Shown piece after piece: positions 18,685-25,020 of a stretch of DNA of 25,280 nucleotides. The notes below the pieces were generated by a model that was not told where the DNA came from, did no database searches, and saw only the letters and a program-made list of their open reading frames with translations. Position 1 is the stretch's first letter, and each line of letters starts with the position of its first letter. Source of the stretch: a virus. Taxonomy: Duplodnaviria; Heunggongvirae; Uroviricota; Caudoviricetes. Where the stretch lies: IMG/VR virus record IMGVR_UViG_2713896907_000003, one strand, 5' to 3'. The position numbers and the translations under genes were made by a program.

Positions 18685-18999
18685 TTAGCATTTTTTTGAC
18701 CGCGCGTTTCCGGACGTATTCTGTTCTCCTGTCCCTTTATATCGTCGGAATACCCGCCGCTCTTCAAATCCCATTCCCAACTCAGAATGTAGTCTGTTGA
18801 CCGCTTGTTTTATTTCTGTCAGGTTCACCGGTGAAACCGGAGTCCGGCGCGCCTTACGCAAACACTCTGCTCGTTTCTGTGCCGCCACTTTTCTTTTCTG
18901 GTCATCACTTAGCTGTACCATCACTTTTGCCCATCGTTCAGCTGCTCTCCGGTACAGTCCTTTTTTCTCCAGACATTCTGCCAGGTGATCATGTAGCAT
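18685..18999 (-). CDS. PerC/Pch-family transcriptional activator-like protein (phage cargo)
   Basis: 104-aa ORF with a strong GGAGG RBS; the N-terminal LEKKGLYRRAAERWAKVM motif resembles the PerC family as recalled. Preceded by a ~460-bp AT-rich leader. Confidence 0.5.
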   Translation of the reverse strand: MLHDHLAECLEKKGLYRRAAERWAKVMVQLSDDQKRKVAAQKRAECLRKARRTPVSPVNLTEIKQAVNRLHSELGMGFEERRVFRRYKGTGEQNTSGNARSKKC

Positions 19000-23514: not shown

Positions 23515-23538
23515 AAAAAAGCCCGCCGAAGCGAGCCT
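23515..23538 (-). terminator. Intrinsic terminator downstream of the tRNA cluster
   Basis: Minus strand: GCUCGC-UUCG-GCGGGC (UUCG tetraloop) followed by UUUUUU. Confidence 0.5.
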
Positions 23539-23549
23539 GATAATAAATC

Positions 23550-23624
23550 TGGAGCGGGTGGCGGGAATCGAACCCGCATCATCAGCCTGGAAGGCTGAGG
23601 TAATAGCCATTATATGATACCCGC
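23550..23624 (-). tRNA. tRNA with anticodon loop CUUCCAG (anticodon UCC, glyT-like scaffold)
   Basis: 75-nt cloverleaf folded by hand: acceptor GCGGGUA/CACCCGC, perfect T-arm GCGGG-UUCGAUU-CCCGC, perfect anticodon stem UCAGC/GCUGA, CCA encoded. Confidence 0.75.
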
Positions 23625-23627
23625 ATA

Positions 23628-23703
23628 TGGTGCCGACTACCGGAATCGAACTGGCGACCTGATGATTACAAGTCAGTTGCTCTACCATTGGAGCTAAACC
23701 AGC
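23628..23703 (-). tRNA. tRNA-like gene, aberrant (weak anticodon stem; loop CUUGUAA; isotype uncertain, possible pseudo-tRNA)
   Basis: 76 nt with perfect D-arm GCUC/GAGC, T-loop UUCGAUU and CCA end, but the anticodon stem pairs at only 3 of 5 positions and the T-stem has one mismatch. Confidence 0.5.
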
Positions 23704-23708
23704 ATGTT

Positions 23709-23783
23709 TGGCGGGACAGCGTGGACTCGAACCACGATAAGAAGGTTAACAGCCTTCCGTAATGATCTTTATACGACTGACCC
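23709..23783 (-). tRNA. tRNA with anticodon loop CUGUUAA (anticodon GUU, Asn-like by sequence)
   Basis: Perfect T-arm CGUGG-UUCGAGU-CCACG and anticodon stem GAAGG/CCUUC; acceptor stem has one mismatch; CCA encoded. Confidence 0.65.
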
Positions 23784-23787
23784 CAAT

Positions 23788-23830
23788 AAAAAAAGCCACC
23801 GTTGCAACTTAAGAGTCACTAACGGCAGCT
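23788..23830 (-). terminator. tR'-like terminator immediately downstream of the late promoter
   Basis: Minus strand: 9-bp stem GCUGCCGUU/AACGGUGGC (two wobble pairs) with a 17-nt loop, then UUUUUUU; lies between the promoter and the first tRNA. Confidence 0.45.
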
Positions 23831-23837
23831 TACCTTC

Positions 23838-23870
23838 TAATTATGGCTAAATGGATAATTGCATGTCAAG
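23838..23870 (-). promoter_or_regulatory. Late promoter pR'-like (sigma70 -35 TTGACA, 18-nt spacer, -10 CATAAT) overlapping the 3' end of Q
   Basis: Minus strand: TTGACA (23869-23864), spacer tgcaattatccatttagc, CATAAT (23845-23840); position just after Q mirrors lambda pR' (established knowledge). Confidence 0.45.
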
Positions 23871-24365
23871 GCCTTTAACAGCAACATGCTTAACTTTCTC
23901 AACACGTTTACGCATTTTGAAAGCATTTTTCATTGGCTGGTATAAAACAAATAATGACGCTTTCAGGATGTCGTCAATTTCGTTTCTACAGGTTGCCAGT
24001 GAAGGTTTTCTCCATCCCTCGCCACCACGTCCACACATCTTGCGTGGCTTTGCAGTCGCGTGATAGTAGGATGCAATTGCTCGCTTAGATGAACCATGAG
24101 CGTAGTAGCTGAGGAGGATGCCGAAGGCTTTCTTGTCAATGTACATGACGGAATCGACGACCTGAGAAATCAACATTCCATCATCATCATTACACATTGG
24201 CCTTGTCATAACTCTTCCCGGCTCTACGCTCTCCATGAACTTAGCTATTACGCTGCTCATGCGCTTTTCCAGACGACCTGAATAAACCCATGCGCCCCAC
24301 AGTTCAAGCCAGCCATTCAGCCACTCGTGCTGTTCTTTGGTGAGGTTTAGTTCTCTTATGCCCAC
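23847..24365 (-). CDS. Q: Late-gene antiterminator Q (non-lambda Q family)
   Basis: ORF upstream of the late promoter, tRNAs and lysis genes; LELWGAWVYSGRLE motif resembles the QuuD-type Q family as recalled. Start placed at GTG 24365 behind a GGGAGAAGG RBS; the track's longer form (start 24422, GTG, no RBS) overlaps ninG. Confidence 0.65.
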   Translation of the reverse strand: MGIRELNLTKEQHEWLNGWLELWGAWVYSGRLEKRMSSVIAKFMESVEPGRVMTRPMCNDDDGMLISQVVDSVMYIDKKAFGILLSYYAHGSSKRAIASYYHATAKPRKMCGRGGEGWRKPSLATCRNEIDDILKASLFVLYQPMKNAFKMRKRVEKVKHVAVKGLDMQLSI

Positions 24366-24408
24366 GCGCCTTCTCCCTTGTGATTTGGAATGTGTTTTAC
24401 TGAGAACG

Positions 24409-25020
24409 TCATGCAGCCTCACTTCTGCTGTTTCGCAGTTTTTTAAGTTTCTGTTGATACTCCGCCTTGATGGCCCTGCACTCTTCGACAGTCCAGCGAT
24501 GGCGGTTATGGTCTGATTCGATTTCCTCTACTGCTTCCTGCCCGATGCGGTTAATCAGTTCGACACGATACGGAACGAGATTTCCGCTTTTATGCTGGTT
24601 GCACACCACGCATTGCTTGTGAATATTGCGTTCATCAAACCGGAGTTGAGGTGCCGCAGCAGTTGTCCGGTAATGCCCGGCATCCCACTGAGCAGACGTG
24701 AGCGTTCCGCACGAGATACATGGTAAGTCGCGGTCTCTTTCTCTGATGAAGGCGTTTACGGCTTGTTGGGCTTGTTTAATCCAGTAACTGCGGGGCTTTA
24801 AGGCGAGTTTTCTAATCTTAAGTTTATCTTTCTGTTTCTGCTCCTCTCGTCGTCGTTTCTTCTCTGCTGCTTTTTCCGCTTTTTCGCGTTCTTTGCTTCG
24901 TCGTTCGAGTGCTATCTTGGTTCCACACTCTGGAGAGCACCACCACTGATTAGCGAATGCAGGATGAAACCATTCCCGACATTCATCGTTTTTACATCGT
25001 CTTCGCGCTGGTTTAGCCAT
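24409..25020 (-). CDS. ninG: NinG / Rap recombination-associated structure-specific endonuclease
   Basis: 203-aa [50 protein letters not shown]... matches lambda NinG as recalled; GAGGAAGAAG RBS. Confidence 0.9.

Follow-up and report, generated by a model that had tools for sequence, protein, structure and literature searches.

The 25,280-nt stretch of viral DNA analysed here (hereafter the window) carries on its minus strand, at the 3′ end of an antiterminator gene, a compact unit (23788-23870) that is best read as the late-gene regulatory cassette of a lambdoid prophage, built around a Q protein of the phage 21 family and belonging to the Sf6/phage L subtype. Judging from the sequence, we put the probability of this reading at roughly 0.9. 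Read in this way, the pR′-tR′ unit is an ordinary late switch of a kind already annotated or described for phages 21, Sf6, and L. The original prediction had called it a Q-proximal late promoter followed at once by a terminator, an identity that is backed by homology to the phage 21 annotation and by the descriptions of Sf6 and phage L.

A predicted sigma-70 promoter lies at the 3′ end of Q, on the strand that it shares with that gene (features below are on the minus strand unless marked otherwise). Its −35 hexamer, TTGACA (23864-23869), is invariant in related loci and, together with the −10 hexamer CATAAT (23840-23845), matches the sigma-70 consensus at 11 of 12 positions across a spacer of 18 nt. 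The stop codon of Q (TAG, 23849-23847) falls within this spacer, so that the overlap between promoter and stop codon had been located correctly from the start. The promoter is the sole sigma-70 match of at least 11/12 in the whole 25-kb window, both strands included, and block shuffling of the window gave a mean of 0.2 matches at this level by chance (100 shuffles). Between the two hexamers, and abutting the −10, lies a putative Q-binding element (QBE) made up of two direct 8-bp subsites (23860-23845). The putative upstream subsite (QBEu), AATTATCC at 23853-23860, matches the phage 21 QBEu in position, and the putative downstream subsite (QBEd), ATTTAGCC at 23845-23852, is aligned with its phage 21 counterpart and kept in about 80 close relatives. 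QBEd contains the TAG of Q, and its final base is the first base of the −10.

Transcription is predicted to start at G 23833, 7 nt after the −10 and with an uncertainty of about 3 nt. This G aligns with the annotated phage 21 start, one base before TAAGCT; the start in the window could be a few nucleotides off because the −10 and the bases that precede the start differ from those of phage 21. TAAGCT itself, at +2 to +7 (23827-23832), is identical to the annotated sigma-dependent pause element (SDPE) of phage 21, and it also opens the 5′ arm of the tR′ hairpin. The intrinsic terminator tR′ (23788-23831) consists of a hairpin from 23831 to 23793 that leads into a U7 run at 23794-23788. In the RNA, the hairpin spans +3 to +41; its 17 bp are interrupted by one bulged A and capped by a CUUA loop, with a predicted folding energy of −20.2 to −20.8 kcal/mol (z = −4.9); none of 200 dinucleotide shuffles was equally stable. 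A simple terminator scan did not call this hairpin, probably because the bulge does not fit the ungapped-stem pattern. There is no T run after the hairpin on the plus strand, which makes the terminator signal one-directional. Counted from +1 through the last U, the predicted Q-independent RNA measures 46 nt, in line with the roughly 45 nt first proposed, and the predicted start lies, also as first proposed, only a few nucleotides from the hairpin and its U7. Across 18 close variants, 95.8% of the cells of the hairpin are paired. Covariation among the same 18 sequences was no better than in shuffles and revealed no two-sided compensatory changes, because the sequences are too similar to one another. 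The invariant part of the hairpin runs from +2 to +28 and thus comprises the 5′ arm and the loop, and the 3′ arm is variable, with changes that mostly preserve pairing.

The Q gene upstream of this unit (23847-24365) encodes 172 amino acids from a GTG start assigned by homology with Sf6 gene 59. The same homology led us to reject, as an over-extension, a 191-aa version starting at 24422 that appears in a mechanical list of open reading frames. The protein belongs to Pfam PF06530 (E = 1.4e-25) and matches the Q21 structures in PDB entries 6P18 and 6JNX with E of about 1e-92. Its identity with phage 21 Q is 86%; residues 1-94 are identical, and nearly all differences lie beyond residue 94. The window protein is also 10 residues longer than Q21, and this C-terminal extension is encoded by the DNA of the −35 and the QBE, which places pR′ inside the gene: the last eight codons of Q hold the −35 and both predicted Q-binding subsites. 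As a result, a promoter polymorphism is also a protein polymorphism. The AGC core of QBEu has T in the window where many relatives have G, and because the promoter lies inside the gene, this G/T difference sets Ala or Ser, respectively, at residue 171 of Q. The strand opposite the Q coding sequence holds a CII-type site, TTGC-N6-TTGC, at 24040-24053 (+) and a −10-like TAGGAT at 24067-24072 (+). Both lie at positions annotated as paQ in phage 21, which suggests that an antisense promoter within Q is probably conserved between the two phages.

Much of this arrangement has close counterparts among known phages. A megablast search against phage records returned phage 21, Sf6, HK-type coliphages, and many P22-like Salmonella phages. 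The late region of phage 21 is annotated in GenBank OL657228 and AJ237660, and we take the experimental basis for this site from the GenBank annotation and later papers. In the complete phage 21 record, the −35, QBE, −10, late start, SDPE, and terminator all stand at positions that align with those of the window, the QBE being given as QBEu ATTGAGCA and QBEd AATGAGCA, with the experimental papers cited, among them Guo, Kainz, and Roberts (1991; PMID 1704887) for the terminator. In an older record for this phage, a 50-nt "aRNA" is placed where the window RNA would be, and a short late-promoter RNA has already been reported for this phage (PMC7547250). Phage 21 and the window share the overall layout, the Q family, the −35, and the length of the short RNA, and from TAAGCT through the hairpin and the U run into tRNA-Asn, they are the same except at two single bases, 23784 and 23759. 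The differences are concentrated in the promoter. The Q-binding subsites are AATTATCC/ATTTAGCC in the window vs ATTGAGCA/AATGAGCA in phage 21, in a shared register; the −10 is CATAAT with an 18-nt spacer in the window vs AACACT with a 17-nt spacer in phage 21; and the bases between the −10 and the start also differ.

The Shigella phage Sf6 and the Salmonella phage L are further counterparts. The Sf6 record (AF547987) annotates P R′, a qut site, and t R′ as "similar to phage 21", and Sf6 is 98.6% identical to the window over Q, the promoter, the hairpin, and tRNA-Asn, differing in having G where the window has T in QBEu and T6 where the window has T7. For phage L, the probable QBE has been given as AATTATCC/ATTTAGCC, the same octamers as in the window, with the late start placed 46 bp before tRNA-Asn (PMC8022706). 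The same study notes that phage L Q diverges from residue 94 onward, a segment through which the protein touches the QBE; of the six residues that make this contact, three are changed (PMC8022706). Since that paper names the same octamers as the QBE, the window feature, including its specificity variant, is already in the literature. Unlike Sf6 and phage L, the window has tRNA-Gly as a third tRNA gene, its middle tRNA has diverged, and a DUF3927 gene and an esterase gene precede the lysis genes.

Taken together, these counterparts suggest how the unit would work. Sigma-70 RNA polymerase would initiate at pR′, transcribing from about G 23833, and would pause as sigma region 2 re-binds the −10-like TAAGCT at +2 to +7. 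When Q is absent, the polymerase would leave the pause, transcribe the 17-bp hairpin and U7, terminate, and release the RNA of about 46 nt, and the downstream tRNA, lysis, and virion genes would stay silent. Once Q has accumulated, two protomers would bind AATTATCC/ATTTAGCC while the polymerase is paused, and one of them would transfer to the polymerase and form a ring, or torus, at the RNA exit channel. The torus would admit only single-stranded RNA, so that hairpins would not form, and tR′ and later terminators would be read through. This torus mechanism comes from structures of Q21 (Yin et al. 2019). For the window, we infer the start site, the pausing, the binding of Q to the variant element, and the efficiency of termination from the sequence.

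The surroundings of the unit bear on whether such a switch could still operate. The genes in the Q region of the window all lie on the minus strand, in the order ninF, ninG, a short ninH remnant, and Q, and 3′ of Q they continue with pR′-tR′, three tRNA-type genes, a DUF3927 open reading frame, a NanS-p-like esterase, and the lysis and packaging genes. The late genes downstream on this strand include a P21 holin, a lysozyme, Rz, Nu1, and a gpA terminase. The first gene after tR′ is tRNA-Asn (GUU) at 23709-23783, called by ARAGORN and by Rfam at 52 bits, and it begins 5 nt past the U run. A gap of this size is too small for a promoter, so the tRNAs should depend on read-through of tR′. RNase P cleavage of the read-through transcript would then release nearly the same leader RNA as termination does. 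The tRNA-Asn differs at 23759 from phage 21, Sf6, CB9615, and JLK-2012 (A vs G, in AAAGATC vs AAAGGTC), and the base directly 5′ of the gene, 23784, is G vs T.

The second gene of the cluster, at 23631-23703, is tRNA-like and related to the phage 21 tRNA-Thr (UGU), with an Rfam score of 47 bits; ARAGORN did not call it, and it is unannotated in the matching prophage of O55:H7 CB9615. Up to the anticodon stem its sequence is identical to that of the phage 21 gene, and from there it diverges. The standard register leaves two mismatched pairs in the anticodon stem and one in the T stem, and an alternative register would make the anticodon loop 8 nt long. The gene may encode an unusual tRNA, or it may be decayed or a hybrid. 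The third gene, tRNA-Gly (UCC) at 23550-23624, was found by both ARAGORN and Rfam. Past the cluster, the terminator scan called a second terminator-like hairpin with a T run (23519-23538).

Further along lies the DUF3927 open reading frame (23466-23215), followed by a terminator-like hairpin (23029-23011) just 5′ of the likely ATG (22916) of an esterase with DUF1737, SASA, and DUF6645 domains, of NanS-p type. This esterase gene is placed where Stx phages carry their stx genes. We also observed, in the late region, a gene for a PerC-family (Pch-like) transcriptional activator (18685-18999), with lysis genes on one side and terminase genes on the other. On the other side of Q, an 18-codon open reading frame between ninG and Q (24355-24411) has a start like that of lambda NinH and overlaps the start of Q. 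The phage 21 annotation has a ninH remnant of this kind; ninH and ninI are absent from the window and present in Sf6 and CB9615.

One could argue from some of these features that the unit no longer has a function and is a relic left in a defective prophage, or even that it is a chance match to consensus sequences, given that the AGC core of QBEu is altered relative to Sf6 and that the middle tRNA of the cluster looks degenerate. We consider this extremely improbable. The promoter match is unique in the window and is coupled to a hairpin with a z-score of −4.9, Q is intact, and the lysis and packaging genes downstream are complete. The QBE allele of the window is, moreover, that of a viable phage, phage L, and is often seen in viral contigs. 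The 80 IMG/VR contigs that we fetched all keep the promoter and QBE, and QBEu occurs among them as AATTAGCC or AATTATCC, either allele being frequent.

The late switch is also widespread. The Q of the window is encoded at 98-99% identity in more than 590 IMG/VR contigs, and among 5426 complete E. coli genomes, 354 (about 6.5%) carry the whole 92-nt unit, while about 380 others have the hairpin alone, preceded by other versions of the promoter. In the complete E. coli genomes listed, only the Q gene is annotated on the unit, with nothing on the hairpin. When one genome per species was scanned, the exact hairpin was found only in Escherichia, Shimwellia, and two metagenome-assembled genomes that are probably mis-binned.

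Two variant arrangements were observed among the relatives. In the Stx2c phage 2851 (locus L096, about 995-1160), a Q21-type Q is accompanied by what is essentially the phage 21 promoter and by the identical hairpin. Its QBEu is GTTGAGCA, one base different from the ATTGAGCA of phage 21, and its tRNA-Asn persists only as a truncated remnant. With this near-phage 21 promoter and identical hairpin, Stx2c phages would make the same RNA of about 46 nt upstream of stx2c. In other relatives, an HNH/AP2-type endonuclease gene separates the pR′ −10 from the GTAAGCTG hairpin, having been inserted exactly between the two (loci L048, L059, L067, L069, L077, L035, L036, and L041, at about positions 1996-2790). 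The insertion brings its own initial transcribed region, with a TATGCT pause element, and its own terminator, and the 21-type hairpin then stands about 735 nt downstream of pR′. The displaced hairpin is followed by tRNA-Asn in L048, L059, L067, L069, and L077, and in L035, L036, and L041, no tRNA was detected behind it.

What becomes of the short transcript is a separate question from the switch itself. By analogy with related phages, a short pR′-tR′ RNA is very probably made. The original prediction went further and suggested that it may act as a regulatory small RNA in lysogens, as short pR′-tR′ transcripts have been reported to do in Stx phages. This background is accurate: StxS is the pR′-tR′ product of Stx1 and Stx2a phages, which binds Hfq, activates rpoS, and represses stx1 (PMC7547250). 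It is cut by RNase E from a 258-nt transcript to 74 nt, it pairs with the rpoS and stx1 mRNAs through a single-stranded seed, and it is linked to a short Q of 144 amino acids (PMC7547250). StxS resembles the window RNA in arising from a constitutive late promoter, in ending at tR′ in lysogens, and in its 3′ hairpin with a U tail, and it provides a precedent for a pR′ by-product turned regulator.

Several general points would favour an StxS-like role for the 46-nt RNA, acting in trans through Hfq and base pairing. pR′ promoters fire constitutively, and their short RNAs build up in lysogens carrying lambda, 21, 82, phi80, or P22. The 3′ end of the window RNA is a GC-rich hairpin with a U tail, the usual Hfq-binding module, and its hairpin and U7 are compatible, as far as sequence can tell, with Hfq binding. 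The hairpin is also nearly invariant behind promoters of two Q specificities and in several downstream contexts.

Nonetheless, we regard such a role as very improbable. The Q of the window is of the 172-aa Q21 type vs the 144-aa Q that accompanies StxS, and StxS thus comes with a different Q family as well as with a much longer precursor. It has 74 nt and a seed, whereas the window RNA has 46 nt and is almost fully paired; by unpaired probabilities, what is left single-stranded is +1 and +2, the bulged A, the 4-nt loop, and the U tail, and there is thus no seed. A blastn-short comparison with the Q-to-tRNA region of 933W, the phage type that the original prediction had named for comparison, found no homology to its pR′-tR′ region except a 10-nt match in the terminator tail. 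A search of Rfam at gathering and at permissive thresholds returned only the three tRNAs, with no family matching the short transcript, and we found no usable transcriptome evidence for a short pR′ RNA in BTP1-type prophages. Finally, the near-invariance of the hairpin has another possible source, in that the invariant stretch from +2 to +28 is where the pause and Q loading would constrain the DNA, and the 3′ arm outside it varies. The analogy with StxS thus fails on every feature that could be tested, and a regulatory role in the manner of StxS is neither shown nor likely.

Another comparison is the lambda 6S RNA, which runs from pR′ to tR′ and measures 194 nt. Like the window RNA, it arises as a by-product when the late promoter is used without Q in lysogens, and it is not known to have a function. 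It is about four times longer than the window RNA, and it comes with a different Q family and a differently built Q-binding site. No function has been assigned to the late-promoter short RNAs of lambda, 21, phi80, 82, and P22 (PMC7547250).

Beyond trans-acting regulation, the hairpin could have a job in the leader itself. A wider comparison was made with distant Q21-family loci, with Q identities of 47-87%, drawn from phage records and viral contigs (L092-L314). In all of these distant loci, a promoter lies at the end of Q with two 8-bp direct repeats that abut the −10, and TAnGYT followed by GC begins at +2. The repeats themselves vary, with at least seven sequences represented (TGAGCA, TTAGCC, TGAGCC, TTTACC, TGGACA, TTAGCA, and TGAACA). 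The leaders follow two layouts. In one, of about 46 nt, a hairpin at +3 runs directly into the U run, as in 21, Sf6/L, the window, an Enterobacter phage, and the Edwardsiella phage GF-2, in which a hairpin of different sequence with U6 has the same position and size as that of the window. In the other, of about 65-70 nt and seen in HK639, Proteus Pm34, and Hafnia yong1, the 5′ hairpin has no U run, and a separate terminator comes after it.

This pattern raises an alternative hypothesis, where the hairpin, besides terminating transcription, is a conserved 5′-terminal stem-loop with a function of its own. It might guard the late leader from decay that depends on the 5′ end, or serve as the leader that RNase P cuts off the tRNA-Asn precursor. 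Minimum-energy folds place the transcribed pause element in the stem of a hairpin that starts at +1 to +4 in 9 of 10 Q21-family leader classes. This pairing is also present in HK639, Pm34, and yong1, where the hairpin lacks a U run and about 30 nt separate it from the terminator. The variants of the pause element, namely TAAGCT, TATGTT, TAGGTT, TATGCT, TAAGTT, and TACGCT, are matched by the 3′ arms. The placement of tRNA-Asn 5 nt after the U run would fit such a function, as would the loci in which hairpin and tRNA-Asn persist as a unit behind the HNH gene, some 735 nt past pR′. On the other hand, shuffle tests within each class were weak, with the native value reached by 18 to 260 of 500 shuffles, the leader classes are not independent of one another, and the hairpin is also found with no tRNA after it. 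Stabilization of the late mRNA is moreover not possible where tRNAs follow, because RNase P cleavage would detach the hairpin. We therefore think a separate function for the hairpin unlikely, while giving it more credence than an StxS-like regulator. That a 5′ hairpin is selected in all Q21-family leaders with its own function, also in those where it does not terminate transcription, or else that the 46-nt RNA acts in trans, we consider slightly less probable still. The family-wide 5′ hairpin is the sole point in our analysis that might go beyond published work, and it is suggestive at most.

For the late switch itself, there is thus very little new at this locus. The cassette confirms an intact-looking switch of the phage 21/Sf6/L type in a prophage, and it would put three tRNA genes, an esterase, and the lysis and packaging genes under the control of Q. 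For the study of Q21-type antitermination, our comparison may be of modest use, as it shows many variants of the 8-bp QBE combined with the same pause element, and leaders of about 46 nt alongside leaders of about 65-70 nt. This two-layout pattern would carry more weight if the recurring 5′ hairpin were selected independently of termination. If so, the hairpin could stabilize the 5′ end of the RNA, help in the processing of the tRNA precursor, or take part in Q21-type antitermination. If the 46-nt RNA were instead to act in trans in lysogens, it would do so via a protein or Hfq and not through a seed.
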